Counted from the stretch's first letter, positions 1-42,681 are shown. The stretch: 64,000 nucleotides of DNA from Candidatus Micrarchaeota archaeon (GCA_038046765.1 JBBSVN010000005.1:82490-146489), one strand, 5' to 3'. The notes: a model not told the origin generated them from the sequence alone. Made by a program: numbers and translations.

Positions 1-358
1 TATACTGTGTATTGTTTTGTTCTGTCATAATCTTTACCTGTGTGCATTTTGTAGCTTATAATTCATTCTAATTAGCATATAATTTATCGTCGTAATCTAA
101 TATGCCCAAAAGGGTTTAAATTGGTTTGTTTTTGGGTAATCTTGCAGAACCGATTATCTTAAAATAACTTGCTTGAATTTATTAGTCTACTAGTTCTTTC
201 TAGAAGAGAAATCCTTTTCTCTTAAATAAGCTAGTCGATAATTGATAATAATCGACTGGCACTGCCATATGGATGTATTTGTGCAGTGCCCTACAGGTCT
301 GTAATTAGAAAATACACTGTTTTCTAAGCATGCCTGTTGATAATAAGCTAATACAAAT

Positions 359-451
359 GCGCCTGTAGTCTAGTGGTAATCGCAAGTTGTGATCACTAAA
401 GGATCGTAGCCTTCCAAGCTACTGACCCGGGTTCGAATCCCGGCGGGCGCA
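359..451 (+). tRNA. tRNA-Gly(TCC) with ~20-nt D-loop intron (379..398)
   Basis: Acceptor GCGCCTG/CGGGCGC, anticodon arm GTAGC-CTTCCAA-GCTAC, T-arm CCGGG-TTCGAAT-CCCGG. BHB helix GTGG/TCAC with TAA bulges. Confidence 0.93.
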
Positions 452-573
452 AATTTTGATCACAAAATTTGTCGAACTTTAGAAGGCTTTACTGCCATTC
501 TAATGGGCGCAAATTTATTCTAATTTTTCTAATCAAAAATCATTTTAAAAACTGTTGCTTAAAATATATTTTT

Positions 574-1608
574 ATGAAAAATTCGATACTTGAGGATCGA
601 ACTGCTTATCGCAAAAATGCCTCGAATTTACCTACAAATGGTTTTAAGTCACCCGCCCCTTTATTTAGTGCAATTCTTCCGGATGATAATAATCTAGCTG
701 AAGCCAAAGCATTTTTTCGAGGAAAATATTTAAGTGTTTCATCTGATGTAGTTAAATTCGATAAACCTTATGATGGTCGCTGCGTTCTCTGCCAGGATAG
801 TTCTATGGTACTTGTTGAACCAAATTTTACCGTAACTGGTGTTTTTGATGGGTTTGGGGACTCCGGAGAAGTACTTTCGAGATTTTTTATAGATGAATTA
901 TTTCGTGAATTTCATGCTAAGCGTTCTATTTCTTTTAAGGAAGAAGACTTTAAATCATCTATAAATTTAGCGATCGAATTTTCCTCTCTTAATGCACAGG
1001 GTTTTATTAAAAAAATTGAAGGAGGCACTACTGCAATAGTTGCTCTTATTCTAAATGATGGCACTTACTTTTTAGCTTGCATTGGTGATTCTGCAATTTA
1101 TAAATTTAGTAAAACTGGATTGCAAAGATTATCGGATAATTCTATGGTCGGATGCATGAAAAACGAGTCTGGTGTACTTGGTTATTCTGTTTTACCTTAT
1201 ACTCAAATCGATCTTAAGCAATACCTAGATAATCGGCATCTTGTTTTAGAATTTTTATCTTCAATTGGTTTAAGTGGCAGCAATCCTAAAATAAATTTTT
1301 TATCCGGACACCTTGAAAAATCAGAAAAATTAATCCTTGTAACTGATGGTATAACAAAAAATTTATCCATTATTATTGGTCTTTTAGATTTGGTGAAAGA
1401 TGCGAGCGGGGTATCGGATTTACAAGAGATTATAAAAACAAAAGCATCCGATCGTTTCATTGGTCGCGCGGTATTAAAAGCAGTAAGAGAAAGGATAGCA
1501 TCTTCAAGAGAAACATCTCTTAATGATATCTTAAAATCAAGAACAGATGGCACGGTTCTAGTTCCACAAGATGATGATCGCACGGTCGTAGTTGTTAAAA
1601 AATTCTAA
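574..1608 (+). CDS. PP2C-family protein phosphatase-like protein
   Basis: CQDS, GVFDGFG, GGTT, IGDS, LVTDG and DDRT motifs. ATG 574 preferred over TTG 469. Confidence 0.8.
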   Translation: MKNSILEDRTAYRKNASNLPTNGFKSPAPLFSAILPDDNNLAEAKAFFRGKYLSVSSDVVKFDKPYDGRCVLCQDSSMVLVEPNFTVTGVFDGFGDSGEVLSRFFIDELFREFHAKRSISFKEEDFKSSINLAIEFSSLNAQGFIKKIEGGTTAIVALILNDGTYFLACIGDSAIYKFSKTGLQRLSDNSMVGCMKNESGVLGYSVLPYTQIDLKQYLDNRHLVLEFLSSIGLSGSNPKINFLSGHLEKSEKLILVTDGITKNLSIIIGLLDLVKDASGVSDLQEIIKTKASDRFIGRAVLKAVRERIASSRETSLNDILKSRTDGTVLVPQDDDRTVVVVKKF

Positions 1609-1610
1609 TT

Positions 1611-2276
1611 TTAAAATACGCTAGCTAATCCTCTTAAAAATTCTTTAGGATCCTTCGCATTTACATACGCGCTAGCTAACAAGACTCCTCTGCTGCCCAG
1701 TGCTAATGCTTTTGCAACATCCTGCTTAGTACTTACTCCTGCGCCACAAAGTGGGATAATTTTATCATTAACTAGTTCTATCGTTCGTACGCTTTCCTTT
1801 ACTACTTCTGGTTTAGCCGTACTTACGCTTATTCCGCTTCCTATTAATTCTGGTGGTTCGATCGCGATATAAGTTGGCAGAAATTCCGCAACCTTTTTCG
1901 TTTCTTTTAAATCTGCTGTGCAAGCGATGCTTTCTAATGAATTAATGTGCAATCTTTCAATTGTATTCTTTACTGCTTCTAAAGGAAGTTTTTTCTCGGA
2001 ATGATTAACTAATGAACCTCTTACTTTTATTCGTTTTAATGCCTCTGGAGGTAGTGAACCTGTATGCGCTCCTGGTTGCATATAATCAGTATGCTGCGCA
2101 AATATGTCGCTAAAGCGCTCTGCTGATTCTTTTAAATGTATTATTGGAGGACAAACGATGATTCTAACTCCTGTTTCTTCTACTACTTCGCTTGCTACAT
2201 CTACATAGTATAGTGCTTTCTCTAAGCTTTTCTCGTATGTTTTAAGGTTAAGAACTATCATACTTTCACTCTTCAC
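1611..2276 (-). CDS. tpiA: Triosephosphate isomerase (archaeal type)
   Basis: NLKTY, NHSE, IEPPELIG and GVLLASA motifs. Confidence 0.95.
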   Translation of the reverse strand: MKSESMIVLNLKTYEKSLEKALYYVDVASEVVEETGVRIIVCPPIIHLKESAERFSDIFAQHTDYMQPGAHTGSLPPEALKRIKVRGSLVNHSEKKLPLEAVKNTIERLHINSLESIACTADLKETKKVAEFLPTYIAIEPPELIGSGISVSTAKPEVVKESVRTIELVNDKIIPLCGAGVSTKQDVAKALALGSRGVLLASAYVNAKDPKEFLRGLASVF

Positions 2277-2333
2277 AAGAAAGGAATAAATATGTGCTGA
2301 TAATTATTACAAAAAAAGAAAAAAATATTTTAT

Positions 2334-2651
2334 CTACTTTGCAAATTTATTCAATTCAATTTGAGTTAAGTATTGCGCGGCTGGGAACAAGACTAACCAC
2401 AATACGAATAATAATACTTTACTCTGCGAACCTTTTGATACTTTTTCAACATCTTGGGCATATCTCCAGAGAACATAGAATCCTACTATTGGGAGAAGTC
2501 CAAGAATTAACCAAACTATTGCGCTTGTTTTTCCTCCAGTTAATTCATTTAGTTCGGTTCTTGTTTGATAAAACCAATATAAGTAATATATTCCTAAAGT
2601 AAGTATACTAAATATAATTACCTTTATCGGATCTCTTTTTTTAATTGCCAT
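2334..2651 (-). CDS. DUF4234-like small membrane protein
   Basis: SILTLGIYYLYWFY motif, hydrophobic segments. Confidence 0.7.
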   Translation of the reverse strand: MAIKKRDPIKVIIFSILTLGIYYLYWFYQTRTELNELTGGKTSAIVWLILGLLPIVGFYVLWRYAQDVEKVSKGSQSKVLLFVLWLVLFPAAQYLTQIELNKFAK

Positions 2652-2763
2652 TATCTTTCACCTTATTATAATTAATAAATTGAATGTCAAAGTAAGGTTT
2701 AAATTTGTTAGTTTAGCTCTGTCTGCCTGTTTTTTAACTATTTTTATTTAATTAACCTATACT

Positions 2764-2954
2764 GCCAGGATGACAGAATCCGGTTATCGTGCTTGTCTCG
2801 AAACCAAACCTTTTACATTGGTTTTTCTAAGAAATTTATTCTTAGAATGCGAGTTAACAAGTTCCCTTGCGGGATTGTAGGTTCAAAAGTTTTCGGATTG
2901 TTTTTCAAAACGCTAGACGCGTAACTGAAAACTGAACATATCCTGCTCCTGGCG
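2764..2954 (+). tRNA. tRNA-Ser(CGA) with two introns: 37/38 (2803..2855) and T-loop 58/59 (2887..2939)
   Basis: GCCAGGA/TCCTGGC acceptor, CTTGT-CTCGAA|A-ACAAG, long variable arm. BHB helices CTCG/CGAG and GTTC/GAAC. Confidence 0.9.
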
Positions 2955-3009
2955 TATAATAATAAAAATTGAACATAGAATATAATATATAAAATATCAA
3001 ATATAAAAT

Positions 3010-3163
3010 GGGCCTGTAGCTCAGTCTGGATCAGAGCGGCACCGTCCTAAGAGTTCTGTGTCATGTGTTTTACGTTTTGTTCGTTATTCGTTCAAGACGC
3101 TAAACTGAAAACACAAAACTCGCATGTAGGTGTAGGCCATGAGTTCAAATCTCATCTGGCTCG
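3010..3163 (+). tRNA. tRNA-Arg(CCT) with 78-nt 37/38 intron (3050..3127)
   Basis: GGGCCTG/CTGGCTC acceptor, D-loop A20, GCACC-GTCCTA|A-GGTGT, ATGAG-TTCAAAT-CTCAT. Relaxed BHB. Confidence 0.85.
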
Positions 3164-3233
3164 TATATTTTTCTTTTTTCTTTTTTTAGTTCTAGCCACA
3201 GCTTTATAATCCTTATTTTCTTTCTTATTAAGC

Positions 3234-3794
3234 ATGACAAAGAAATTCGTTCTTGATACTTCGCTTTTTGTAAACCCTCACGCACGCGGACACTTTGGAA
3301 AAACTCCTGACTTGGCTGTTAAAGGATTCTTGAAAGCTGCAAAGAAGAAGAATGCAGAATTTTACATGCCACCAAGTGTATTTAAGGAATTAAAAAATTT
3401 TCTTAAATCTAAAACTGCCGATGAATTAGAATTGTTTTTGAAGAATAAAGCACCTAATATTTATGCTACTTACTTGCCAGCTGCAGTACTTTATGATTTT
3501 ATCGAAGATATGCGAAATCGACTGAACAAAGGATTAAGATTAGCCGAAGACTATGCTCAAGATAATCACCCAGATAATGCTGCAAAACTTGGGAAATTAA
3601 GGGAAAAATACAGAGAAGCAGTTCGTGCTGGCTTAGTTGATAGCAAGGAAGACTTTGAACTTATTCTCTTATCAAAAGAAATAGATGCTCTTTTAGTTTC
3701 TAGTGATGAAGGCGTAATAAAATTTGCAACTAATATTGGGTGCGAATGTTTGAATGCAAGCAAATTAAGCGCGATGTTAAAGAAGTTAAGATAA
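3234..3794 (+). CDS. RNA-free RNase P (HARP, PIN-domain; MJ0950 RNA ligase partner family)
   Basis: FVLDTSLF, YMPPSV, RNRLNKGLRLAE, LREKYREA-R-G-VDSKED and SSDEG motifs. Confidence 0.9.
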   Translation: MTKKFVLDTSLFVNPHARGHFGKTPDLAVKGFLKAAKKKNAEFYMPPSVFKELKNFLKSKTADELELFLKNKAPNIYATYLPAAVLYDFIEDMRNRLNKGLRLAEDYAQDNHPDNAAKLGKLREKYREAVRAGLVDSKEDFELILLSKEIDALLVSSDEGVIKFATNIGCECLNASKLSAMLKKLR

Positions 3795-3815
3795 AATAAA
3801 CTGTGATTCAAACAT

Positions 3816-4574
3816 ATGTCTAGAAAAACCAAAATCGCACAAAGTTTTGACAAAATCAGCCGAACTTACGAAGATGTTCGGCCTACTTATCCTGATGTTG
3901 TTATCAAAAAGATTCTCTCTTTTTCAAAGATCCCAAAAAATGGTAAAATTGTTGAAGTTGGCTGCGGACCAGGTATAGCTACAATTCCATTTGCAAAAAA
4001 AGGATACAATATCTCTGCCATAGATCCTGGTAAAAATCTCCTTTCTATTGCTAAAGAAAAAACCCGTAAATTTTCAAATGTTTCTTATATTTTAAGTTCA
4101 TTTGAAGATGCTAAACTTCCAATTAATACTTTCGATCTTTTAATTTCTGGTACTGCCTTTCATTGGGTTAATCAGAAAACAGGATATAAAAAAGCTGGCG
4201 AATTGCTAAAGAAAGGCGGAACAATCGCGCTTTTCTGGCTTGCTAATAACTATAAACGAACTGACTTTATTCCTGGTTTATCCGCAGTTTTTAAGAAATA
4301 CTCTAAAAATAAAAAAATCAAGCAAAAACCCTATGAAAAAGAATTTAAACGCATAGCGCGGTCAGGTCTTTTCGGAAAAGTTCACCGGTTCATTTATAAT
4401 CAAAGAATCAAATACTCTAAGGAAGATTACATTAAACTTGTAAGTACTTTTGGCTGGATAAATGTACATCCTAAAAAACCAGAATTTCTTAAAGACCTTA
4501 GTAATTTACTTGGAAAGAGAAAGTATATTTTAGTTCCGTATTCTACTATTCTTTTTATTGCGAGAAGAAAATAA
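3816..4574 (+). CDS. Class I SAM-dependent methyltransferase
   Basis: EVGCGPG motif I, AFHW. Confidence 0.88.
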   Translation: MSRKTKIAQSFDKISRTYEDVRPTYPDVVIKKILSFSKIPKNGKIVEVGCGPGIATIPFAKKGYNISAIDPGKNLLSIAKEKTRKFSNVSYILSSFEDAKLPINTFDLLISGTAFHWVNQKTGYKKAGELLKKGGTIALFWLANNYKRTDFIPGLSAVFKKYSKNKKIKQKPYEKEFKRIARSGLFGKVHRFIYNQRIKYSKEDYIKLVSTFGWINVHPKKPEFLKDLSNLLGKRKYILVPYSTILFIARRK

Positions 4575-4575
4575 A

Positions 4576-5658
4576 TTAATCCTCAATCCCCTTCCCGCTT
4601 AAAGCCTCCTTTATTTTATGGGTGCTTTTCTTGTAGATTTTTCTAAACTTAATTTTTGTTTTTCCATTTTCTGCTTTGGTTCGGCTCACTTCATCAATTT
4701 TTATTTCCTTGCTCATGTGCCTATGGATCCAGTCCCATATTTTTAAGTCTTTAATGATGATTTCATAATCGTCGTAAATTTGTTTGTCGTTTTCGACTTC
4801 CGTTATTGCCTTTGTCAATTTCTCATAAAAAGCTATCCCAAGTTCTTTTGCAAATTTTTCTTTATTTAGTTCAAACTCCCGAATAAATATCGCACTTCTA
4901 AGAACTCTTTGAACATAAAACCCAAGCGGCATATCAAATAAGCTATGCGATGACCCTGCAATATCTTCTATATCTGCAAAAGGATTGACATATTTTACGG
5001 CTTCCTTACGATCTTCGCTCTTAAATATTATCCCCTCCTTTCTCTGTTTCATTATTGATAGTGCGATTTCTCTTATTTTCTTTAAATCAGAAATAGCAAA
5101 CTTGCCAAAACTAGGTGCCTCTTCTATTTTATATTTTTTTAGTAACGATTGCCTTTCTTCCGGAGAAATATAATTGCCGTTTCCAGTATCAACATCAAAA
5201 ACAAATATCTTAACATCAAATCCCTTAGTCGGTCTAGTATATGGGGTGTTTCCAACCATTTCCGCGCATAATACATAATCTGGAAAATCAGAAAAGAATT
5301 TAGGAGTTATTAATTCGCGCGCTTTCTCACTTGCAAAGTAATCAAGGAATCCGCCACGAGAAAATGCGTAAACATTACCATTAATCTTTGCGATTCGAAG
5401 ATTATATCCGTCTATCTTCTCTTCAATGTAAAAATAAGACGCAGTTATGTTCCTTTCTAATCCCTTCTTTAGTGTAAATATCCTTTTAATGTGGGGAAAA
5501 CCAAAAATAATTCGCTCGTTAATAACAATTGTCCCACGTGGAATTCCTCTAAAACCTTCCCGAAAACCAGAATAAATTAGTTCTTCTTTTCGATCAATTA
5601 GTTTGCCTCTTTTACGGGCTTCGGATAGTAATTGATCTGTCATTTCTAGTTTTGGCAT
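4576..5658 (-). CDS. ATP-dependent RNA ligase, Pab1020/Rnl3 family
   Basis: GFPHIKR, EEKIDGYN (motif I), SRGGF, AEMVG, EGIIFK and VKY motifs. Confidence 0.9.
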   Translation of the reverse strand: MPKLEMTDQLLSEARKRGKLIDRKEELIYSGFREGFRGIPRGTIVINERIIFGFPHIKRIFTLKKGLERNITASYFYIEEKIDGYNLRIAKINGNVYAFSRGGFLDYFASEKARELITPKFFSDFPDYVLCAEMVGNTPYTRPTKGFDVKIFVFDVDTGNGNYISPEERQSLLKKYKIEEAPSFGKFAISDLKKIREIALSIMKQRKEGIIFKSEDRKEAVKYVNPFADIEDIAGSSHSLFDMPLGFYVQRVLRSAIFIREFELNKEKFAKELGIAFYEKLTKAITEVENDKQIYDDYEIIIKDLKIWDWIHRHMSKEIKIDEVSRTKAENGKTKIKFRKIYKKSTHKIKEALSGKGIED

Positions 5659-5702
5659 AAAATAAACAAGTAAATGAATATTATAAATATACTCTAAGTA
5701 CG

Positions 5703-7484
5703 CTAAGCCACCTTAGCTTCCTTATTCTCATTAAGCATTTCCTTTACAATTATTGCATAAGCTGGTCTTGATAATAAGAATCCTAAAACAGCTCCTAGAA
5801 TTGTCGACGTAGCAAAACCGATTAATTCAGTTATTCCAGAGAATAATAATGGCATCATCGCAACAATCGCAACAACTATATTTGTTTTAATTATCTCAAA
5901 AGCTGAAGCTATTTTAGATTCAATCGATCCTCCATCTTTTTTCCTTATTTCATCAGTAATTACAATCTGCGCGTCAACACCAACACCAATAGCAGCTATA
6001 ATTCCAGCTACTCCTGCTAAATCGATGTTAAATGGCGAACCTCCTAAAATAGATAATAAAATTATAAGTTCGCTAATACTTACTCCAACTATTGGTAAAA
6101 TCATTTTAAGGCTTCTATACCTAAGCGAAATAAAAATTCCGATTGCGATTAATGAAGCTGCGATACCAAGTATACTTATTTGTAAGAATTCTGCACCTAG
6201 TGTTGCAGGTATTGTTGTTTTACTTCCAAGAGATATTTGAACTGGTAATGAACCTCCTTTTAATATACTTTCAATAAAACGTGCCTGCTCAAGAGCCAGA
6301 TTTGCCTTATTTGTATTTGCACTTAACTGTGTTGTTGGGACGCTTCCGCTGATACCTACTGAATTTCCTGATGGTGGTAATCCCTTTGTTAGTTCTTCTC
6401 CTAAAACTGGCGATGTTAACAACCCTACGGCGGACCATTTTTCTATAGATATGCTTTTATCAATTGGATTATAATTAAACGTCGGTGTTATGTTTTCCTC
6501 TGCAATTTCTTTAACAATAAATCCTTTTTGTTTTAGGTAATCCTTTACTTGTAAGGACGCTTCTGAAGAAATGTATGCTTTTGTTGCGTTGGTTTTTTGA
6601 GTTATATTTGTTTTATTTTGTAAAATTGTTTCTTCAAAATAAAGTTCTATGTTGTCACTATCTGTTTTAAGTGTATTCTTAGCTGCATTTATTGATTCGT
6701 AATCATTTAACTGGCTATTTGTACCCGTTGAAGAAATTGCATTTGCTGCCGCCTCTGCTGCGCTTGTAAGTTTGTCTCTGTTTATAACAATTATTGCATC
6801 TGTTGGTCTATCTAAAAACATGTATACTGGGAATTTTGGTTTATTTTTAGCAGTACTGGCAAATTTCTTTGCGCCTTCGTTGGTCATTGTAAAACCAACT
6901 TCCCAATCTCTGCCGGGGGAACTTCCTGGTACTTTTATCCTGATTGTCTGTGTGTATATATCTTCTGAAGTTAAAGCTGTTTTACCATCTATTACTGCAA
7001 GAAAAACTCCTTGTTGTGAAATCGCTTTTTCTATTGCACTTATTTGTTCATCGTTTGTATTTGCCAGTTCTACGTTTATTTCTGTATCTCCTATTGATTT
7101 GACTTTTACTTCGCTTAATCCAAGAACCGATGCTCTGCTTTTTATCGTGTCTATCATTTTATTCATTGTTTCTGCATCAACTTTCTTTTCCAGTATAATT
7201 GGTATTTTGGTACCACCGCTAAAATCAATTCCAAAATGAAGTCCGTTAAATGCGAGGTTAAACATTGCCAGTAAAACAATCGCAGCCATTCCGAACATTC
7301 GTAGTTTAGTGTCCTTGTAAATTATTGCCATTCCTCCAAAAAGTATGAGTGCCGCAGCAAGTGTCATTCCTGCGAATTTTGAATAACCTGCGATTAAGAA
7401 TATAAATATTAAAAATAATGCCCCTAAGAAAGCCATGCTTCGGTCTAGTTTTAACTGGAATTTTGGTCCTTGTTGTTCGTTCAT
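5703..7484 (-). CDS. secD: Protein translocase subunit SecD
   Basis: GLHFGIDFSGG, LKGGSLPV and GVGVDAQIVITDE motifs. Overlaps secF. Confidence 0.88.
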   Translation of the reverse strand: MNEQQGPKFQLKLDRSMAFLGALFLIFIFLIAGYSKFAGMTLAAALILFGGMAIIYKDTKLRMFGMAAIVLLAMFNLAFNGLHFGIDFSGGTKIPIILEKKVDAETMNKMIDTIKSRASVLGLSEVKVKSIGDTEINVELANTNDEQISAIEKAISQQGVFLAVIDGKTALTSEDIYTQTIRIKVPGSSPGRDWEVGFTMTNEGAKKFASTAKNKPKFPVYMFLDRPTDAIIVINRDKLTSAAEAAANAISSTGTNSQLNDYESINAAKNTLKTDSDNIELYFEETILQNKTNITQKTNATKAYISSEASLQVKDYLKQKGFIVKEIAEENITPTFNYNPIDKSISIEKWSAVGLLTSPVLGEELTKGLPPSGNSVGISGSVPTTQLSANTNKANLALEQARFIESILKGGSLPVQISLGSKTTIPATLGAEFLQISILGIAASLIAIGIFISLRYRSLKMILPIVGVSISELIILLSILGGSPFNIDLAGVAGIIAAIGVGVDAQIVITDEIRKKDGGSIESKIASAFEIIKTNIVVAIVAMMPLLFSGITELIGFATSTILGAVLGFLLSRPAYAIIVKEMLNENKEAKVA

Positions 7485-8572: not shown

Positions 8573-8853
8573 AAAATCAAATACTTCTCTAAGTAGATAT
8601 TTTTGTTGTCAAATAATATAATAGCTATTATTTTTAATTGTTAGGTCTAAATATATTATACTGGCAGGTAGCTAGTGGCTCTTAGCTAGTAGCTTTATAA
8701 TTAAATTGATTTGTTAACCTTATAATAATGGGTTTATAAAAAAATAACGACTGACGCGACCGTTATTTTATACTAAGTGTCGCGTCCTACAAGTCTGTAA
8801 TAAGAAGAGCCTCTTTTTTCTTAGTAAAGAGTATGTAGTAAGTTTATACTAAC

Positions 8854-9055
8854 GCCGGGTTGGCAGATCGGCTATGCCGCCGCCTGCAAACTCCTTTAAT
8901 TGCTTAGGGTCAAACCTAGCTTCTAAAGTTGATGTTTTAAAGGCACTTATGTGATACTTTGTATTACCGTAAGATTCCGCTTTTATGAGGTAAGCGCAAG
9001 TTTACCAATGATATTTAGAAAGCGGCTTAGACAGGTTCAACTCCTGTACCCGGCT
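8854..9055 (+). tRNA. tRNA-Cys(GCA) with ~131-nt 37/38 intron (8890..9020)
   Basis: GCCGGGT/ACCCGGC plus U73, GCCGC-CTGCAA|A-GCGGC, ACAGG-TTCAACT-CCTGT. Confidence 0.9.
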
Positions 9056-9201: not shown

Positions 9202-9977
9202 ATGTCAAGAAAATTACGCGTAGCGATATTAGGATGCGAACCAAAAGAGCAACTCTACTTCCTCATAGGGGAAAACAATGTTTTTCAATGGCGATTCTAG
9301 CAGATAACCTTAGCGAAATGTCTTCTAAAGTTGGTTTTAAAATTCAGCCAACAATTTACTGGGTCGCAAACGGAGCACAATTTCCTAGAATAATTTCAAA
9401 TACATTTGATGCAGTTGTAACTACGGGTTCACAGTTAAACTTAGATAAAGAAAGCATACCTCTAAATCCATGGTATCAAAACCTCTTTGAGTTTATTCGT
9501 TCAGTAAGGCATCAAAGAATTCCAATGCTCGGAATATGTTTTGGACATCAGGCAATTGCAGCCGCATTTGGAGTTGAAGTAATTACCAATCCGATTAAAC
9601 CACAAACAGAAATCGGCTTTGCACCAGTTACTTTGACTATAGAAGGAAGAGGAAGCGGATTACTCTCTGGTCTGCCAAGAGATCATTTTGATGCGCTTTT
9701 CTCACATTCTTATTGTATTACAACTGTTCCACACGGAGCACAAACTTTAGCCATAGGACATGGCAAAATGATTCATGCTTTTAGTTTAGATCTTTTGTAT
9801 GGAGTTCAGTTCCATCCGGAAATTTCACCTGATGTCATAAAACATATTGCAGAATTGCGGGCAGAAAAACTTGCGAAACAGGGAATAAAACGAGTAAAAA
9901 CTGAAATCGAAAGAAGAGTAGATCATACTGTTCTAGAAAACTTTGTTAAGATGGCTGCGAGAATGCGGGAATTATAA
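9202..9977 (+). CDS. Type 1 glutamine amidotransferase (apparent -1 frameshift near the N-terminus)
   Basis: GICFGHQ and QFHPE triad in ORF 9234..9977. GATase-like first strand MSRKLRVAILGCEP lies in another frame from ATG 9202. Confidence 0.8.
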
Positions 9978-9981
9978 TTTT

Positions 9982-10976: not shown

Positions 10977-10977
10977 T

Positions 10978-25976: not shown

Positions 25977-26131
25977 TGGCGGGCTCAGAGGGAAATTCCG
26001 AGTTTTGTGTTTTCAGTTTAGCGTCTTGAACGAATAACGAACAAAACGTAAAACACATGACACAGAACTCTTTTGAACCCTCGGCGGACGGATTAAGAGT
26101 CCGTTACTCTACCAAGCTGAGCTATGAGCCC
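25977..26131 (-). tRNA. tRNA-Lys(CTT) with 78-nt T-loop 59/60 intron (25994..26071); CCA encoded
   Basis: GGGCTCA/TGAGCCC, ACGGA-CTCTTAA-TCCGT, GAGGG-TTCAAA|T-CCCTC. Confidence 0.92.
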
Positions 26132-26310
26132 TTTCTAATTCATTGCTAATGTATCGACACTTAGTATATTCATTTACAGGACGCAGTCTTCGACTGCGTC
26201 GGTAGTTTATTCTTTATAAAAACTAAGGCTACAATTAGCATGTTATTAGCATATTCTATCTGTAAACAAGTGTTTTTATTTGCTTGTAAATCAAAAGATA
26301 GTGACCGCAG

Positions 26311-34386: not shown

Positions 34387-34540
34387 TTTTCATTTCCAAT
34401 TGAACGAAACGTCGTTCAATGGACTACAAAACGAAAAGTCGTTTTATATGTTCGCAAAAATGAAACGCTAGTAACCCCTTTACTGGTGTTCACTGGATTT
34501 TTTTCAATACTTATAAAAACCCTTATTCTCTAATAATATT

Positions 34541-34729
34541 ATGCAGCTTATCATAAATAACGACAAAAAACAGCTTGAGTTTACTGGTGAAATCCAAAAA
34601 CTTTTAAAGCAGGAAAAAATTCGAAGGGAAGAAGTAGTAATAAAAGTGAATGGAAAACTTGCTCCTGAAACTACGATCGTTGGAGATAAAGATACTGTTG
34701 AAATCATTAAGGTCGTATTCGGTGGCTAA
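34541..34729 (+). CDS. ThiS/MoaD/SAMP ubiquitin-like sulfur carrier
   Basis: VNG and C-terminal VFGG; adjacent to the thiolase. Confidence 0.88.
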   Translation: MQLIINNDKKQLEFTGEIQKLLKQEKIRREEVVIKVNGKLAPETTIVGDKDTVEIIKVVFGG

Positions 34730-34762
34730 TGGCTAAATGCCAAGGGCTAAAAGCTGATTAAT

Positions 34763-35683: not shown

Positions 35684-35691
35684 CAGAGTAA

Positions 35692-36102
35692 TTATTTTCT
35701 AAGTAAATTAAGAAGGTCAGTAGTTGTTACAATTTTAACTATATTTTGCTTTTCTTTTAAAGCAGCGTCATAAGTCCATAAACCAGCGCCCAAATACATT
35801 GCGAGTGCTAAAAATGGCCAATCATCAGGATCAGGCGTAAATTTCAAGACTTCTTCTTTGTATTTCATATAATCCTCTTCAGGCACAATTGTGAGTTTAG
35901 AAAAAATAATTGAAAGAATTGTATGAAATTCTTCATCTTTGTACTGCGATTTTTTCATTATTTCATTCTTATGTTTCTCAATTTCATCTCTTACGTACTC
36001 TGGAGCATAGCATACAAATGCACGATTAAAAAGAACTTCTTGAGTTATCGATCGTTTTAGTGCTGCAGAAATGATTACATTTGTGTCTACTACAAGGAGC
36101 AT
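35692..36102 (-). CDS. PIN-domain toxin (VapC-like)
   Basis: VVDTNVIIS, DPDDWPF and WTYD motifs. Confidence 0.85.
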   Translation of the reverse strand: MLLVVDTNVIISAALKRSITQEVLFNRAFVCYAPEYVRDEIEKHKNEIMKKSQYKDEEFHTILSIIFSKLTIVPEEDYMKYKEEVLKFTPDPDDWPFLALAMYLGAGLWTYDAALKEKQNIVKIVTTTDLLNLLRK

Positions 36103-36104
36103 CC

Positions 36105-36335
36105 TTAAGCCTCGTGTCTTTTTCTTACGGCTTCTTTAACTTTTTTTGAAATTTCTTCGATATCTCGATCAGTCGCCTTGCTTTTTGAAGTCAGATCTTT
36201 AAGTAATTCCAATTTATTGATTTGCTCTGCAAATGCTTCTCTAGCTACTTCTGACCAGTTGATTATCTGAAATTCATCCATCTTTGTTTTCATTTCTATT
36301 GGTACCGACACAGTTATGTTAACCATATTCATCAC
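36105..36335 (-). CDS. Putative RHH antitoxin
   Basis: NITVSVP...INWSEVAR; directly upstream of the PIN gene. Confidence 0.8.
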   Translation of the reverse strand: MMNMVNITVSVPIEMKTKMDEFQIINWSEVAREAFAEQINKLELLKDLTSKSKATDRDIEEISKKVKEAVRKRHEA

Positions 36336-36389
36336 ACAGTATTTATGTGTAAAGAATATTTATAATGTTTTGCCTAGAATAAGTAAATT

Positions 36390-36599
36390 TGGACTCGCAG
36401 GGATTTTCAAGCACCGCCCTTTTCAACACCTCGGTTCTACAAGTATCAAAAAGGGCTGTTGTCACCCCAAAACAAGCTATTCCAAGAATCGTTTCTTAGT
36501 AAAACCTGCAATGGTTGACCTTCTAAAAAGAAAAGATGGTCTTTGAACCCTGAGTCTCTGCAATGCGAATGCAGCGCCTTACCGTTTGGCCACGAGCCC
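36390..36599 (-). tRNA. tRNA-Ala(CGC) with ~138-nt T-loop 59/60 intron (36404..36541)
   Basis: GGGCTCG/CGAGTCC with G3.U70, CTGCA-TTCGCAT-TGCAG, CAGGG-TTCAAA|T-CCCTG. BHB helix TTCA/TGAA. Confidence 0.9.
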
Positions 36600-36656
36600 T
36601 ATTGTATAAGTACTTTGTTGCCAAATCTTTTTAATTCACAGTCTCTAAGTCTAATC

Positions 36657-37181
36657 ATGCAATTTCATTACATTCACGGTACTAATTCGCTTGTTTTCAA
36701 AGAAATTTGGCAAATTTATGAAGAATCTTTTCCGCCTGATGAACGAAGAACTTTGGCACAGCAGGAGGAACTTTTTAATCGGAAAAACTATGTTTTACTT
36801 GCAGTCTACAAAGAAAACAAGCTCGTTGGTTTCATTTCAAACTGGGTCTTAGATAGCTTTTGTTTCGTTGAACATGCTGCAATAAAAAAATCGCACCAGG
36901 GCAAAGGATTTGGAACTAAGAGCTTGGCGCTTTACTTAAAGAAAGTAAATAAAACCTTTATTTTGGAAGTAGAGTTGCCCACCAGTCAAATTGCAAGAAA
37001 GCGAATTGATTTCTACAAGAAGCTTGGGTTTAAGTTAAACGATTTCGATTACGTTCAGCCTTCTTATTCTAAATCTAAAAAGAGCGTTCACCTAATGATT
37101 ATGAGTTATCCTAAGGAATTAAAAGGAGATGAATTTGAAGAAATAAAAAAAGAGATTTATAAGAAGATTTATGGGATTTAA
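36657..37181 (+). CDS. GNAT acetyltransferase
   Basis: YEESFPPDERR, QGKGFG and FYKKLGF. The upstream part of the ORF track entry overlaps the tRNA, so start is set at 36657. Confidence 0.88.
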   Translation: MQFHYIHGTNSLVFKEIWQIYEESFPPDERRTLAQQEELFNRKNYVLLAVYKENKLVGFISNWVLDSFCFVEHAAIKKSHQGKGFGTKSLALYLKKVNKTFILEVELPTSQIARKRIDFYKKLGFKLNDFDYVQPSYSKSKKSVHLMIMSYPKELKGDEFEEIKKEIYKKIYGI

Positions 37182-37208
37182 TAATGCAATGTTAAATGAG
37201 GTAAAACT

Positions 37209-37714
37209 ATGGAATATGCCAAAAAGGATATACTGGATTTAACTTTATAAGAATCTTTATTATTGCACTATCCTTATTTCTAATTGGCTTTGGAACCGTA
37301 ATGGCTTATTTTGCTATTCTCACATTAATTGATGTTAATGCACCTCAATTTTTCTCGATTATACTTTTTTCAATTTCTGGATTTTGTATCTGGTGTGGAT
37401 CTCAATTTTTAGGGGGAATAAGTAGAATAATAATAAATGGTAGCGAATTTGAAATAGTCGATCTCATCGGAAGAAAACAGAAAATCTATCTTATATCAAA
37501 AGCTAAGCTTGAGTTATTATCTTCTGGTGGTGATTCTAATTATGTTTATCTCTCTCTACAAATATTTCATTCTAAAGGAGTACTTAAATCAATTTCGATC
37601 AAGAAGTTCGATAACTTTATGAAATTGTTAAAAGATTTAGAACGCATTTCGGGAAAAGAAGTTGAAGGGATTAAATTACTAGATGCAAAAACTGATGAGG
37701 ATTATCTTTTGTGA
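37209..37714 (+). CDS. Hypothetical membrane protein (apparent -1 frameshift after codon 6)
   Basis: ORF 37301..37714 is open upstream with a TM segment but no start. The SD+ATG at 37209 is in another frame. Confidence 0.5.
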
Positions 37715-37783
37715 TTACGGAAATTTTATATATTTCCGCTAATTTCCGCTATTTATCCTCTGTAAAATACAATTGCGGAAAAG

Positions 37784-38413
37784 TTAATCACCATGTCTTC
37801 TCCCTTCAAACCAATCAAACATATCCTGCCTGAGTTTACTTTTTCTTCCATCCGGGTGAGTAAAAACAACACCTTCGACAAAGTGCTTGAATTCTTTGTT
37901 TTCCCTTCCGTTTATCCTATAAGAATAAAGTGGCATAAGTTCCTTGAACCAGTTTGAAATAGTTTCAAAATCTTTTTTGTACTTGCCACTGCTCCAGGAT
38001 TTATACTGTAAATGGTCTTTGCAGTAGGTTTCAAACGGCAACCATAAATGCCCTTTAATGTTGTATGGATTTCCATTTATCTTCTCTCCAATAAGTTCTC
38101 CAAAATGCTGGCCATCTGCAAAGTTTTCCATGTAACCTTTATCATAACTTTCAATTACACCTTTAACTAAATGCATCTGAGTTTTATTAAAAAATGGTAC
38201 AGGGTTTATTCTATTCCATATCGAAGTTACTATTCCGTTTTCCATTACAACACTTACATTTGTTCCATGAATTTTTTCTATTGCCATTACGCTTGGATCA
38301 TTAAATACCCATTCATAACCGGAAGTAACTTCGGGGGTAACTAAATATTCTTCCTTTTCATTCATTTTTCGAACGAACGGGGATTCTAGTTTAGGGAAAT
38401 CGCGTATTTGCAT
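37784..38413 (-). CDS. Putative ATP-dependent RNA ligase (RLIG1/DUF5565-like)
   Basis: EKIHGTN (motif I), GELIGEKINGNPY and EGVVF-HPDGRKSK. Confidence 0.75.
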   Translation of the reverse strand: MQIRDFPKLESPFVRKMNEKEEYLVTPEVTSGYEWVFNDPSVMAIEKIHGTNVSVVMENGIVTSIWNRINPVPFFNKTQMHLVKGVIESYDKGYMENFADGQHFGELIGEKINGNPYNIKGHLWLPFETYCKDHLQYKSWSSGKYKKDFETISNWFKELMPLYSYRINGRENKEFKHFVEGVVFTHPDGRKSKLRQDMFDWFEGRRHGD

Positions 38414-38435
38414 AAAGTCAGCTCGTTACTTTGTA

Positions 38436-39491
38436 TTAATAAATATAAGATTTTCCAAGCATTTTATTAAACCCAAATTTTTTCCTATTCCTCCAGTTCC
38501 CTTTATGGTAAACGTAACTCGCGATTAATGGCAATACGCTTCCTGCTTCAGCATAAACCATCTGCTCGTAAGTAGTATCTACCTTACCCCAGGAACTGGC
38601 TTCTTTTAAAGTAGAACTAGAACACGCTCCATCTCGAACATCAGCTACCGTAATCTGTACTGCATATTTATGCATAGGTACATCTTTTCCTAATATTTCA
38701 GCACAAATAACGGTATCTTGGGCAAAGTTCTTTGGTACCCCTCCACCAATCATGAATAATCCAGAATTTTTAGTTGCCATCTTTACTTTAGTTAACTCGT
38801 GAAAATCTCTAACTGAATCAATTGAAACATACTTTTCTTTTTTCTCCATTCTTCTAACTTGATGAGACACCAGGCCAAATCCAGCGCTTGAATCAGAAAA
38901 TGCAGGACAAAATATCGGGACATTATGTTCGTACGCAGCTTGAACAAGTGAGTTTTTCTTTTTTGCGTGCTTAGTGCACCATTTTCCCATCTCGTAAATA
39001 AATTCACGGGATGAATATGGCCTTGGTTCAAGCGTATCAGCTATTTCACCAATCGTTTTATCACAGTGTTGCAACTCTTCCTCGTCAATATATGTATCAT
39101 AAATTCGATCGATATAATTATCTCTTAAATGGCGATCATCGATAGCAGGTATTCCCTTATAATGGTTAAAACCCAGTGCTTCAAAAAAATCCATATCGAC
39201 TATTGAAGCTCCTGTAGACACAATTGCATCGATCATATTATTTTTTACTAAATCATGGTAAATTTGCATGCAACCTCCAGCACTGGTACTTCCAGCTAAA
39301 GTTAGCATAATCGCGCAGTCATCTTCCTTTACCATCATGTCTAAAATGTCTGCAGCACGGGCAGTATCTCGAGAAGTAAAAGACATATCTCTGTAACTGT
39401 TAATTATCTTTGTAGAATCAAATGAAGTAATATCTACATGTTTTACTTTTTCCTTTAATAAATCCTGTTTTTTACTGGTGTTATTTTCCAT
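38436..39491 (-). CDS. dys: Deoxyhypusine synthase family
   Basis: IDRIYD, PAFSDS, GGGVPKN and EASSWGK motifs. Confidence 0.88.
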   Translation of the reverse strand: MENNTSKKQDLLKEKVKHVDITSFDSTKIINSYRDMSFTSRDTARAADILDMMVKEDDCAIMLTLAGSTSAGGCMQIYHDLVKNNMIDAIVSTGASIVDMDFFEALGFNHYKGIPAIDDRHLRDNYIDRIYDTYIDEEELQHCDKTIGEIADTLEPRPYSSREFIYEMGKWCTKHAKKKNSLVQAAYEHNVPIFCPAFSDSSAGFGLVSHQVRRMEKKEKYVSIDSVRDFHELTKVKMATKNSGLFMIGGGVPKNFAQDTVICAEILGKDVPMHKYAVQITVADVRDGACSSSTLKEASSWGKVDTTYEQMVYAEAGSVLPLIASYVYHKGNWRNRKKFGFNKMLGKSYIY

Positions 39492-39579
39492 AGCTAAGAT
39501 ATTTGTAAGAAAAAAATAAAAATCCAGTAGCTGCGGCTACTAGCTTTTTATTTCAACAAAAATAAAAATCCAGTACAAA

Positions 39580-40404
39580 TTATTGTGCATCCTTAACTCT
39601 AACTTCTAAGTTTTCATTTCCAGTTCGTTCTACTTCGAAAATAGTTCTATTATACCCAGCGAATACAAATGTAGCTCGATGACTGTAAGTATTTAAACCA
39701 TATCTCCAACCTAAATGATCGCTTATAGCTCTAGATAGGGGTCGTACTTCTATTTTGTCGTTTGTAGTAAATGTTTGCATACCCATATCTATTGCACTTA
39801 TTCCATCTTTCTTATCTATTTTTGCACTTTCTTCTGCTGTTAGAATCCTCGGAAGGCAATCTCCATTTGGATCAATTATCTTTCCTACCTGTCTGTCCCT
39901 TGTTTTTAATCCCCAATACCTAGCTACGTTAGTGGCAACTATAACTTTTTTAGGGACTATTATATCTCGTTCGCCTTCCTTTGCAAATTCTTTAAATTCA
40001 CTTATAAGCAGTACGGTATTTTTATGCGCTCTTCCAGTAAATTCGCTTTGTGCAAGATGTTTATCTAAATCCACGATCGTTAATTCTGTTTCAGGGTCGC
40101 TAACGCTGAGCCTTCCGCGCTTGAAATAACTACCTAATCCCGGGCATATTACAATTGTATTTAACCATATTGGATGTCTCCATTTCAATCCTCCGGGTTG
40201 CGTTATCAACCTAAAAAAAGGTGTATTTCGTATAATTAAATCCCTGTGAAAATCTTTATTCTCGGGTAAACCCCCTTTATCCTGCATCATTTGATGCGCT
40301 TGCAACCATGGCATCTGAACTCCAGTTGAAACGATCTCTTTTCTTTTTGTTCCGCTTAATTCTAGTTTTATCAAAGTCATACTATCTCCAATTAACATTT
40401 GCAA
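39580..40404 (-). CDS. Hypothetical protein
   Basis: 274-aa ORF. Confidence 0.55.
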   Translation of the reverse strand: MQMLIGDSMTLIKLELSGTKRKEIVSTGVQMPWLQAHQMMQDKGGLPENKDFHRDLIIRNTPFFRLITQPGGLKWRHPIWLNTIVICPGLGSYFKRGRLSVSDPETELTIVDLDKHLAQSEFTGRAHKNTVLLISEFKEFAKEGERDIIVPKKVIVATNVARYWGLKTRDRQVGKIIDPNGDCLPRILTAEESAKIDKKDGISAIDMGMQTFTTNDKIEVRPLSRAISDHLGWRYGLNTYSHRATFVFAGYNRTIFEVERTGNENLEVRVKDAQ

Positions 40405-40466
40405 AAACTAGAATATTATTTTAGTCCAATCGTACGCTGGTTCATTTATAATTAGAACTTATATCG

Positions 40467-41180
40467 CTAAATTTTCTTAAGTACTTTAAAAAATAGTGGA
40501 ATCAGTTTTGATTCTGCTTTCCTTAAATGCTCTGATAATGTTGGTGGAGAAATGCCTATCTGAATCGCCAACTCCTCAAGGCTAACTTTTTTTGGAATAT
40601 CATAATAACCCTGGTTGCAAGCTAGTTCAAAAACCTCTCTTTGACGTTCACTTAATAAATCTCTCGCAGAGTTTAAATCAAAAAATCCACTCTTACTAAA
40701 AACATCCAAATTGACTTTATTCGCTTCCAATATTTTCTTTCTTTTTAATTTTATGTTCCAATCCTGCTCTTCCCAGTTTTTTACTAAGTTCTTTAATTGA
40801 TTATATGAACTAGCAAGTAATAGTTCCGTGTCTGCACCTTCTTTTGTTACGGGACTTTCAAGTAATGTTACTCCGCTTTCGTGCAATATTTTCAAAGTCA
40901 TTGCCTTGTAGCTCGAAGTTATCTTAAGCAGCGCAGTTTTATTTGTTTTAGTTACTACTTCAAGTTTTTTTACTAATTTATGTCCTCTTAAAAAGTCTAT
41001 ATCTTTGTCTATTCTTAAGGATTCTATTTTTACTAAGCTGGTTATGTTGTCGTTCTGTATTCCGAGCGTCCTTATGGTATTTCCGTGTGCGTCCTTACTT
41101 TTTTCCGTAAGATCAACAAGCCAGCACGGGTGGGAGATATTCACTTCAAAAAATATCAATTCCTTTTTACTTGCTGGCAT
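40467..41180 (-). CDS. Bat-type (HTH_10) transcriptional regulator
   Basis: LSERQREV...GYYDIPKK...EHLRKAESK. Confidence 0.88.
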   Translation of the reverse strand: MPASKKELIFFEVNISHPCWLVDLTEKSKDAHGNTIRTLGIQNDNITSLVKIESLRIDKDIDFLRGHKLVKKLEVVTKTNKTALLKITSSYKAMTLKILHESGVTLLESPVTKEGADTELLLASSYNQLKNLVKNWEEQDWNIKLKRKKILEANKVNLDVFSKSGFFDLNSARDLLSERQREVFELACNQGYYDIPKKVSLEELAIQIGISPPTLSEHLRKAESKLIPLFFKVLKKI

Positions 41181-41258
41181 CTCTTCAACTCGTTTTTATT
41201 ATGTCTGCTTAATTGTTTCGTAAAAATAAATCTGTCAAGAAATAAAAAGAAATGCTTA

Positions 41259-42320
41259 TTACTTTCTAAATCTTTCTCTTAACCAGTCAGGCTGATAATA
41301 TTTCGAAGGATTACTCATACGATCTAATTGTTCATAAGCTGATTTAGATTTTCCTTCTGGGTCTTTTTCTGCTATACTAATCAATGCTAGTTTGAACTTG
41401 TCAATACTAAATTCTTTTATCGCGCGTGTAGCATAATAAAAAGATTCATCTTTTTTAAATCCTAAGGACTTTGCCTGATCTATTATTTGTTGCGCATTCG
41501 GGTATATTAAAAATTCGCAGAAAAATTTAAGTTCTTCTAAATCATATAAAATCGGATATTTTTTCGAATCATTAAATGGATATGCGGGGTGAGTACTTCT
41601 CGAATATTTCATTGCTTTTTTAACTGTTGTTTCATTGTACGTTCTAAGCAGCTCTATCGCTTCCCTGTTTTTTATTGTTTGAAAATCTATTACATTCGGA
41701 ATTAAACCTATTTCTGCTGCTTTTCTGGTTGTGTCTTCACCGTATAATTTGACTGCCCGTGTACAATCAATAATATCTACCTTATATTTATCTGATATGT
41801 CTTTTGCAATTTTGACATTTTCTTCTCCTAAACTAGAAAGTAATTCTGCTTTTTCTAATACTTTTAATACTTCACTTATTACATAACCTGAATGGCCAGG
41901 ATAGTATGCAATTGTCTGATTTGCGCGTTTAAACTGTTTTCGATATCTTTCGCTAGAATCATTACTAATTATCTTCCTTATCTGTGAATCAAAATCTAAA
42001 TGCTTTTTTGCTACATCTATAATAAAATTAGTAATTGGTGCATTGGTTGTTGTACCTACCCTAGCATTTCTCAATTTTTCTAGCTGTGCATTTGCATAAT
42101 CTAAAATCGCCGTTTCACTAGTAAATCTACTTGGTTCTTTTGTATCTCCATCTTTTAGATAAATCACTTCACTTTGTGTTTGTTCCATTGTTTGTGTTTC
42201 TCTAGCTGGAATTGGTCGATATTTATCATAAGCGTATATACTTGCAGTTATCGCTAGTGCTGTAATTATCGATACTGTTGTTAGGTTTACTTTTTCGTTA
42301 AGTTTTCTTAGTAATTTCAT
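41259..42320 (-). CDS. Hypothetical membrane-anchored protein
   Basis: N-terminal TM helix, 353 aa. Confidence 0.6.
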   Translation of the reverse strand: MKLLRKLNEKVNLTTVSIITALAITASIYAYDKYRPIPARETQTMEQTQSEVIYLKDGDTKEPSRFTSETAILDYANAQLEKLRNARVGTTTNAPITNFIIDVAKKHLDFDSQIRKIISNDSSERYRKQFKRANQTIAYYPGHSGYVISEVLKVLEKAELLSSLGEENVKIAKDISDKYKVDIIDCTRAVKLYGEDTTRKAAEIGLIPNVIDFQTIKNREAIELLRTYNETTVKKAMKYSRSTHPAYPFNDSKKYPILYDLEELKFFCEFLIYPNAQQIIDQAKSLGFKKDESFYYATRAIKEFSIDKFKLALISIAEKDPEGKSKSAYEQLDRMSNPSKYYQPDWLRERFRK

Positions 42321-42681
42321 TTTAACTCCTGTTTTTGGGTAATTCGGATAAATGTTATAATAAGTATATACTTGTAAGTATTTTAAATGCTATCGAAAAT
42401 AAGAAATTTACTATGTTTAGCTAATTCTAAAGCATTAAAAACTATTCTAATAACTAATTATTCTACTACTTTTGCCTTAAGTTTATTCTGGGTAAAATGT
42501 CCGTTATTTATAAGTTAACGACTGGCAATGCCGTTAGAATTATTTTAATGCACTTCAAAAACGACGATTCGTTTTTGAGGATTTGAGAAAGACGATTCAT
42601 TCTCAAAGTTGCCCTACAGGTATGTAATTAGAAAAATCACTTTTTTCTAAGTATGCTTGTATGTAATAAGTATATACAAAT

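Follow-up and report, generated by a model that had tools for sequence, protein, structure and literature searches.

What are the structured sequences standing immediately before several tRNA genes of this archaeon, and how did they come to be there? The window, i.e. the whole stretch of 64,000 nucleotides analysed, belongs to a Micrarchaeota-like genome (G000; other G numbers denote relatives). A preliminary description had reported a homologous leader upstream of four tRNA genes, viewed as an unannotated ncRNA, a pre-tRNA leader or a tRNA-targeting miniature element. Copies of a module of about 105 nt are present as claimed before tRNA-Gly(TCC), tRNA-Cys(GCA) and tRNA-Leu(TAA), all on the plus strand, and each ends 0-3 nt before the tRNA +1. 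The first (247..358; 88.8 bits, in the covariance model training set) features stem arms at 258-265 and 283-290 separated by a 17-nt loop, followed by a CTACA bulge (291-295), and its conserved 3' half reaches +1 of a tRNA gene with an insert in the D-loop (359..451). The second (8742..8853; 105 bits, in the training set; arms at 8753-8760 and 8779-8786) precedes a tRNA gene with a long intron (8854..9055, corresponding to C5:91343-91544). The third (42513..42681), outside the training set of model R1, scored 70 bits with it and precedes an intron-containing tRNA gene (42682..42838). The minus-strand tRNA-Lys(CTT), which has a T-loop intron (25980..26131), had been credited with a shorter version. 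The hairpin (26180-26200) and a 14-nt stretch in common with the Cys copy are there, but the sequence (26132..26211, minus strand) is a degenerate, rearranged relic of weak score (E 0.006-0.011). A fifth copy, carrying the fourth match to CTACARGTNTGTAAT and lying beyond the coordinates first described, had been missed. It is located on the minus strand (62132..62241), ends at the start codon of the tyrosyl-tRNA synthetase gene (TyrRS; 60974..62131, minus strand; NF006330 above cut-off) and has an SD-like hexamer at -11. Allowing up to 2 mismatches, four matches to CTACARGTNTGTAAT were found in the window versus 1.12 expected, and 0 of 100 shuffles reached four. No left end of the ISH3-type kind described below was found at the five window copies. 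A homologue of HARP, the PIN_5 protein-only RNase P (3234..3794, plus strand), is a candidate trimmer of the long leaders.

The module folds into a 4-bp basal helix, a 5-nt bulge and an 8-bp stem closed by a fixed loop of 17-18 nt. The loop had been called variable; it fits instead the pattern CAT-N11/12-DGT. The extra hairpins noticed in the Leu copy exist, but they form a twin-hairpin insert of 56 nt within the 3' stem arm (42553..42608, plus strand) rather than lying in the loop. Covariation of the 8-bp stem is strong: double changes occur in 6 of the 8 predicted pairs, and 53 double-change cells were counted against 24.4 in shuffles, while slid controls never exceeded 14. The stem-cell count left out 4 of 26 copies, those with nested inserts; in it Watson-Crick pairs fill 172/176 cells, and 17 different arms are represented. 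The conserved sequence on either side now departs by 22% from the consensus, and the preservation of the stem despite this drift is not what plain neutral decay gives. G-U pairs are nearly absent from the main stem, and the basal helix, read on the sense strand, shows the series U-A/U-G/C-G and A-U/G-U/G-C. Other helices covary weakly, and the agaa/ttct hairpin is no more than 74% paired. Many conserved unpaired bases flank the one covarying stem. No covariation was found for a pseudoknot of the 5' GACU with the TACA/TGTA loop, for a pairing of the bulge with AGUA, or for 5'-3' closing stems in G001. The advised comparison with Rfam, made at E<=10 for 5 loci and at E<=1 for 7, returned no match over the module, either to T-box/antiterminator families or to self-cleaving ribozymes of the known kinds (HDV/theta, hammerhead, twister, pistol, hatchet).

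The covariance model scan that had been proposed identified 27 copies in G000. Of these, 12 end at most 5 nt from a tRNA +1 (p about 1e-31 versus intergenic DNA). Four end at the start codons of TyrRS, ThrRS, SRP54 and a PIN gene, and the remaining ones include copies at convergent gene ends. The module is found at 16 of 36 located tRNA genes and is absent from the other 20. Copies lacking transposon ends (hereafter end-less) lie in sense orientation, with 0-5 nt between their 3' end and a start codon or tRNA +1, and the downstream genes are rich in tRNAs, aminoacyl-tRNA synthetases (ThrRS, TyrRS, SerRS), SRP54, initiation factors and RNAP subunits. The copies located beside the SRP RNA gene in G001 and G035 are convergent with its 3' end, and have been rejected as 5' leaders. 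Given the copies at start codons, convergent stops and the SRP RNA 3' end, and the 20/36 tRNA genes lacking the module, the notion of a tRNA-specific pre-tRNA leader is unsupported.

SD-like ends mark protein-linked and not tRNA-linked copies (p=0.003, 5 vs 15; p=0.0015, 18 vs 6; copies beside SRP RNA in G001 and G035 excluded). The SD sites within the module, together with intercistronic copies, point to transcription through the module. The genome TATA peak lies -31 to -27 from ATG, and a TATA-like word at -40 to -27 was found at 1/16 module-linked tRNAs versus 4/20 tRNAs without the module. There is no fixed upstream TATA, and of the ncRNA hypothesis the free-standing gene is unsupported, while a structure under selection has support.

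Two sets of transposon ends surround the module in some copies. The ISH3 family has CRGT ends and 4-5 bp direct repeats, according to the accessible part of PMC2266710. In G000, 3 of the 27 copies, none at gene starts, are bounded by CAGT…ACTG inverted ends and an exact 5-bp target duplication, forming non-coding MITEs of 143-193 bp. Such configurations number 11 genome-wide, 3 of which are at module copies (chance 0.0016 each). In G037 a copy (L271) is similarly enclosed in ISH3-type ends (11/12 matching) and an exact 5-bp duplication, and in G004 a degenerate module (L259) lies in the same configuration, its exact 5-bp duplication containing the start codon. An intact ISH3-like IS of G339 (L279), also flanked by a 5-bp duplication, has an end identical over 19 nt to that of the L271 MITE; its transposase scored 128 bits, below the 225 cut-off. 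The second form, found in G069 and G037, consists of 142-bp MITEs with TA flanks in a palindromic site. Ends and TA flanks are those of an IS630 element of G342 (NF033545 above cut-off). The ends match in the comparison of L253 and the G037 copies with L264; the 2-bp TA duplication is weak on its own. In G031 the copies have inverted ends of yet another type, the third, where a duplication is not clearly seen. In G037, identical copies at different loci have two left and two right flanks.

The tRNA-linked or start-linked copies of G000 have kept neither a left TIR nor a target duplication. A search for ISH3 right-end remnants in these copies gave p=0.037 versus the IS end and p=0.63 versus the MITE end. 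In G000, 89.7% complete, no cognate autonomous IS was found, and profile searches gave no PF01609, PF13358, NF033541, PF01797 or PF07282 match. Autonomous ISs carrying the module were not encountered either (0/19, 0/3 IS630 and 0/23 further IS loci).

Within the family the module is present in 9/38 genomes (E<=0.05), in patchy number: 27 copies in G000, 29 in G001, 12 in G031, 10 in G037, 5 in G047, 1 in G004 and 0 in others. When genes preceded by the module in relatives were compared to their orthologues in G000, the start was empty in 23 of 24. In 30 relatives, a BLAST search with the Gly locus picked up nothing but the tRNA. Some sites are nevertheless common across genera, namely the PIN gene, tRNA-Ser(TGA), tRNA-Ala(TGC) and tRNA-Asn. 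Weak matches in G015, G033, G001 (C59) and G040 (C82, C56) have been rejected by eye. At the order level, 1 of 40 other genomes had 3 weak matches, all inside ORFs and rejected; at the phylum level at least 1 of 150 genomes is positive, under strict filters and with 25 candidates per genome scored. An exact-pattern scan of metagenomes gave 0 matches. A relaxed pattern gave none in viral sequences, and 30 genome and 27 metagenome matches, all in non-homologous DNA of 51-74% GC and judged to be chance. Contigs from two DNA read runs covered the Gly copy without differences, with no empty allele seen; those from a single RNA run covered no module copy. No description of this module was found in the open literature. 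The available part of preprint 10.64898/2026.10.21.760802 reports the clustering of all GTDB intergenic DNA, and its supplements may contain the family.

Miniature transposons of two unrelated kinds carry the module, which most often ends a few bases at most from the start of a housekeeping or tRNA gene; it is therefore not a dedicated tRNA leader. TIRs, 5-bp target duplications, identical copies at different loci and empty orthologous sites, together with the 12/27 copies at tRNA starts, speak for the third of the initial options, the miniature element. On balance we think that the module is probably a structured passenger of non-autonomous mobile elements of one Micrarchaeota family, and that the end-less copies are transcribed 5' leaders. 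It would be a small mobile element, apparently not described so far, of tiny groundwater-type archaea. DDE transposases acting in trans would spread the module, and copies landing on the first bases of a strongly transcribed gene would be favoured and survive, plausibly because the gene stays whole and the module turns into its transcribed 5' leader. Once inserted, the module would serve as an intercistronic spacer in operons, would be removed from pre-tRNA by RNase P/HARP, and would gain a Shine-Dalgarno site on mRNA. The hairpin would be kept by RNA-level selection, its most likely role being to stabilise or insulate and so to render the insertion harmless. End-less copies would also have been copied or gene-converted between loci. 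They may derive from MITEs, or the module may have been captured by MITEs.

A bolder reading is possible, if on the unlikely side. The module could be a new functional class of structured RNA that makes first-base insertion harmless (by self-processing, nuclease blocking or ribosome loading), and hence was captured by unrelated transposon families, whose insertion at tRNA +1 and start codons it steers or licenses. It would then be an archaeal, DDE-based counterpart of tRNA-upstream-targeting retrotransposons, partly domesticated as leader of almost half of the located tRNA genes.

Alternatively, the end-less module may itself be mobile through a hairpin-dependent mechanism of its own (an RNA or ssDNA intermediate, a recombinase or ligase) seeking gene boundaries, and MITEs captured it twice or more. 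This is rather improbable, even if the same module lies between unrelated IS ends, its stem is strictly Watson-Crick, and in G001/G047 a constant 39-44 nt separates an internal motif from the gene start. The same nested inserts are moreover shared by end-less copies at unrelated loci (ThrRS and tRNA-Val; tRNA-Lys and tRNA-Ser), and tandem and B-A-B arrangements occur, among them a perfect direct repeat of 41 bp (C7:117191). Gene conversion and tandem duplication, however, account for the repeats equally well. Candidate enzymes linked to the copies were not found. A copy follows a reverse transcriptase gene at 1 of 6 such loci, but the other five have none, and this link was dropped. The loop, compared to ends and junctions as a guide of the IS110 bridge RNA kind, does not match them: p was 0.11-0.41 in G000 and stayed above 0.48 for the G001 set. 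A single test of the 10, on the reverse complement of the upstream sequence, reached p=0.025, which lost significance once corrected. Derivation from REP/RAYT or IS200/IS605 elements (PATE) is unsupported, as PF01797 is missing in G000, G001, G037, G047, G035 and G069, none of 20 Y1 loci has the module, and G000 has no TnpB.

The nature of the downstream genes, the sites common across genera, the selected stem and the SD adaptation would all suit a domesticated cis-regulatory leader, riboswitch- or T-box-like, of tRNA and translation/transcription genes, homogenised in each genome by gene conversion. The empty orthologous starts, the many copies at convergent ends, where there is no gene to control, and the lack of the module in most family genomes make this unlikely; no Rfam riboswitch or T-box was matched, and the cognate codon expected of a specifier occurs at any one column in at most 3/9 copies. 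A new self-cleaving ribozyme or processing signal freeing the tRNA or mRNA 5' end, a MITE-borne insulator and 5' counterpart of theta ribozymes, would fit the fixed spacing to mature 5' ends and the conserved unpaired bases beside a single covarying stem, and tRNA-adjacent ribozymes have a precedent in the part of PMC10879173 consulted. We find it very doubtful, with two helices only supported, no pseudoknot covariation, no Rfam ribozyme match even at E<=10, a motif resembling the archaeal BHB intron in just one of the three window copies checked for it, and both HARP and an RNase P RNA-like gene already in G000. Least probable of all is a DNA-level promoter module, in which a palindromic regulator site and a TATA box would serve the downstream gene, and the hairpin would remain untranscribed. 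The near absence of G-U pairs, a T-rich stretch about 35 nt before the gene start and TATA-like words in several G001/G047 tRNA copies agree with it, but perfect covariation is unexpected for a protein-binding palindrome, and module-linked tRNAs in G000 rarely show the TATA-like word.

Prokaryotic elements using tRNA genes usually integrate at tRNA 3' ends. The module lies instead, in sense orientation, at the first base of housekeeping genes and of 16/36 located tRNA genes, independently in several genera. If targeting is real, it points to a transposase or an RNA reading transcription or translation starts, a matter relevant to safe-harbour insertion and to the biology of mobile elements. 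A single RNA fold, conserved in both ISH3- and IS630-type MITEs, offers a directly testable case of a passenger benefiting its carrier, and of mobile DNA giving rise to regulatory leaders in a streamlined DPANN genome. Were the stem inert, the module would be a lineage-specific MITE family of modest interest.

Among known systems, the T-box riboswitch precedes aminoacyl-tRNA synthetase genes. The module is also found before such genes, but has no specifier codon or T-box match, and is located before tRNAs and at gene ends as well. Theta ribozymes are HDV-like, phage-borne and process tRNA 3' ends, with self-scission shown, as reported in the portion of PMC10879173 available. They too are small structured RNAs repeated beside tRNA genes, as far as described there; the module, in contrast, lies 5' of the tRNA and lacks the HDV fold. 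The accessible text of a review (PMC10969869) describes Neisseria Correia/NEMIS and enterobacterial ERIC as small structured MITEs co-transcribed with neighbours, whose RNA they affect, folded by long TIR pairing and cut by RNase III or RNase E; it does not mention placement at tRNAs or start codons. Judging from that text, the fold of those elements stems from long TIR pairing, that of the module from a conserved internal hairpin.

IS630/Tc1-mariner-type elements duplicate a TA target. Module copies of G069 and G037 are alike in their TA flanks and in inverted ends matching the G342 IS630; the form is not found in G000, and its passenger is the same as in the ISH3-type form. ISH3 elements and their MITEs share with the latter form CAGT (CRGT) termini, the 5-bp duplication, an archaeal host and the matching G339 element. 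The ISs themselves, however, lack the covarying ~105-nt module, most copies of which are end-less and hug gene starts. Ty3, Ty1 and Dictyostelium TRE5 are retroelements that Pol III factors tether immediately upstream of tRNA genes. The module occupies a similar position, one that is both safe and active, but it has DDE-type ends and is also found at start codons.

The structured leaders that the preliminary description placed before tRNA-Gly, tRNA-Cys and tRNA-Leu are all present, ending 0-3 nt before the tRNA +1. Of the fourth leader claimed there, before tRNA-Lys, only a weak, rearranged relic is found. The core 15-mer of this element, hereafter the module, occurs four times in the window (1.12 expected), and the fourth occurrence belongs to a complete copy (62132-62241, minus strand) that abuts the start codon of TyrRS. 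Modules are absent at four further tRNA genes of the window (Ser 2764, Arg 3010, Glu 34265, Ala 36599). The host genome (1.5 Mb, 34% GC, 89.7% complete), in which the window is C5:82490-146489, alone represents its genus in the set of genomes searched.

In an alignment (A2) of 16 copies free of inserts, the module opens with a 4-bp basal helix, followed by an 8-bp stem, with a bulged C and two further pairs closing it. The loop varies in sequence and is fixed in length (CAT-N11/12-DGT). A 5-nt bulge, usually CTACA, and about 55 conserved nt, mostly AT-rich, follow the stem; over the 42 nt 3' of it, between-copy identity is 67% and divergence from the consensus 22% (14 copies). Covariation of the stem, already proposed, is borne out by double changes in six of eight pairs (53 double-change cells, 24.4 after shuffling and at most 14 after sliding). 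A hand count of the 22 correctly parsed copies out of 26, the four with nested inserts being left out, gave 17 different arms and 172/176 Watson-Crick cells, with one G-U and three mismatches. In a model-fitted 52-row alignment, which includes three antisense duplicates, the basal helix has C-G in 49/49 cells, flanked by U-A/U-G/C-G and A-U/G-U/G-C series, a pattern that speaks for sense-strand pairing at the RNA level.

The extra hairpins of the Leu copy exist, but are located in a 56-nt insert within the 3' arm (42553-42608), not in the loop. Similar twin-hairpin inserts are common to the ThrRS and tRNA-Val copies, and likewise to the tRNA-Lys(TTT) and tRNA-Ser(TGA) copies. These small inserts form a family nested at varying positions within modules (other sites: C3:129392-129555, C6:16470-16640, C5:45129-45292, C9:729-905, C2:9551-9711, C5:35464-35626), probably a second, smaller mobile element.

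Scanning the host genome with covariance model R1 identified 27 copies at E<=0.011, 16 of which are training sequences of the model. In twelve, the end falls 5 nt or less from the +1 of a tRNA on the same strand, and a thirteenth stands in tandem with one of these. Start codons mark the end of four more (TyrRS, ThrRS, SRP54 and a VapC-like PIN gene); the remaining copies precede promoters, occupy convergent stops or sit within MITE ends. The module is carried by 16 of the 36 tRNA genes located, an incomplete set, once four degenerate copies recognized visually or by a weak score are counted. Matches are strongly enriched before tRNAs: p is ~4e-31 for the 12/27 copies against non-ORF DNA, and ~3e-17 for the tRNA share of gene-start copies (12/16) against all gene starts, their number (1600) being estimated. 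Survival bias alone cannot account for this >500-fold excess over other intergenic DNA, and targeting or positive selection, both candidate causes, is therefore needed. Short tandem heptamer-like repeats are often found just upstream of modules and behind tRNAs (window 8660-8695, and many gaps here and in the related genome G001). Two DGR/group II-like reverse-transcriptase loci were also noticed (C4:70753-71978 and C4:12424-12858); the former is split across two frames and has a module directly 3'.

Iterated models (E<=0.3) found 29 copies in G001, 12 in G031 and 5 in G047, all relatives; G037 has 10, G035 two, G004 and G069 one each, and G040 three credible ones. At the family level, 9/38 genomes had a match at E<=0.05, two of which were rejected by eye; at the phylum level, under strict filters, 1/150. 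G001 copies precede tRNA-Pro, -Ser, -Ala and -Arg, and are found also at start codons within conserved operons (rpoN, rpl30, spt4, pyrI and aIF2-gamma, as we read the translations), the internal motif lying 39-44 nt from the start. In two relatives an opposite-strand copy abuts the 3' end of the SRP RNA.

Three host copies (C7:95300-95444, C2:66855-66997, C4:93604-93796) feature CAGT/ACTG ends, exact 5-bp duplications and a 45-nt 5' extension, and two of them are 95% identical. The whole genome has 11 such end-plus-duplication configurations, three being these modules (chance 0.0016 each). CRGT ends and repeats of 4-5 bp define the ISH3 family (PMC2266710), which these MITEs resemble. Ends and duplication recur in G037 (locus L271); in G004 (L259) CAGT-type ends enclose a degenerate module missed by model R3, and the duplication includes the downstream start codon. 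An intact 1418-bp ISH3-like IS of G339 (L279:1200-2617), itself flanked by a 5-bp duplication, has one end identical to that of L271 over 19 nt. The same module is enclosed in a 142-bp element of G069 (L253), and in identical contig-end copies of G037, by different inverted ends with TA flanks in a palindromic site; a 1093-bp, TA-flanked IS630 element of G342 (L264) has matching ends. Intact ISH3-like and IS630 ISs of the Micrarchaeota-family genomes G339, G342 and G040 (L279:1200-2617, L264, L241:698-2329) are candidate transposase sources for these MITEs. No autonomous IS among those examined contains the module, and the 89.7% complete host genome has no match to five transposase families searched. 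Because it sits within both ISH3-type and IS630-type ends and is absent from these autonomous elements, two or more types of MITE carry the module as a passenger. Around the module, five G031 loci (L067, L063, L037, L193, L224) display a third end type, inverted repeats resembling TGTTG…CAACA; a clear duplication is not seen there.

Genome-wide, the SD consensus is AGGTGA at -12/-11, and the TATA peak lies 31 to 27 nt before ATG, which shows that many genes are leaderless. The 16S rRNA 3' end (C3 ~1055-1110, plus strand) has a shortened anti-SD. Modules linked to proteins fit the SD more closely than those at tRNAs (p=0.003, 5 vs 15, one tRNA window being off by a base; second set p=0.0015, 18 vs 6). 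Since, in addition, many copies are intercistronic, we infer that transcription runs through the module.

The archaeal nature of the genome is marked by genes for a thermosome, a Pab1020-type RNA ligase (window 4576-5658) and, near the latter and right behind tRNA-Arg, HARP (PIN_5; window 3234-3794), whose named closest homologues are mostly from Candidatus Micrarchaeota. With an RNase P RNA-like gene scoring below cut-off (C5:35937-36199), both RNase P types seem present. Many host tRNAs have several introns at non-canonical places. An identical 74-nt sequence interrupts the anticodon loop of tRNA-Arg(CCT) (window 3049-3122, plus) and the T-loop of tRNA-Lys(CTT) (~25999-26072, minus), and is read as a recently moved tRNA intron; its 3' part does not recur in the genome. 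Similar GC-rich T-loop inserts are found in tRNA-Leu(TAA) (window 42750-42815) and tRNA-Ser(GGA) (C2 ~9850-9900).

The reading we favour, at somewhat better than even chances, is that the module is MITE-borne, spread in trans and kept at gene starts as a transcribed leader with a preserved stem. Trans-acting transposases would spread the MITEs, insertion at the initial bases of highly transcribed genes would be favoured and retained, and the left end would then erode. The leader would be trimmed off pre-tRNAs by HARP or RNase P and gain an SD on mRNAs, its stem being maintained as a stabilising or insulating fold. No left end or target duplication is found in start-linked copies, all five of the window included; comparing their tRNA-side ends with the ISH3 right end gave p=0.037 against the IS end and p=0.63 against the MITE end. 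In several, the 3' half is repeated upstream, with 41 exact bp at C7:117191. That the end-less module is itself mobile and was captured by MITEs is unlikely, though the strongest competitor.

A domesticated regulatory leader looks rather less probable: two aminoacyl-tRNA synthetase genes of the host carry the module, but no specifier codon was found. Of 26 element-preceded proteins of relatives, 24 have a tblastn match in the host (two partial, possibly paralogues), where the element is found only at the PIN gene. A ribozyme is quite improbable; mutual information revealed no further covarying helices in 43 mixed or 33 genus-g2 copies, and an Rfam scan gave no match over the module. Least probable of all is a DNA promoter module: no fixed TATA lies inside it, a TATA-like word at -40 to -27 occurring at 1/16 element-linked tRNAs, vs 4/20 element-free ones. 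Nor is there a fixed TATA upstream of the module.

No published description of the module family or of its start-hugging placement was found in the literature searched, and the supplements of a 2026 intergenic-clustering preprint may list the family. MITEs as a class, and folding MITE transcripts acting on neighbours, are known already (PMC10969869).
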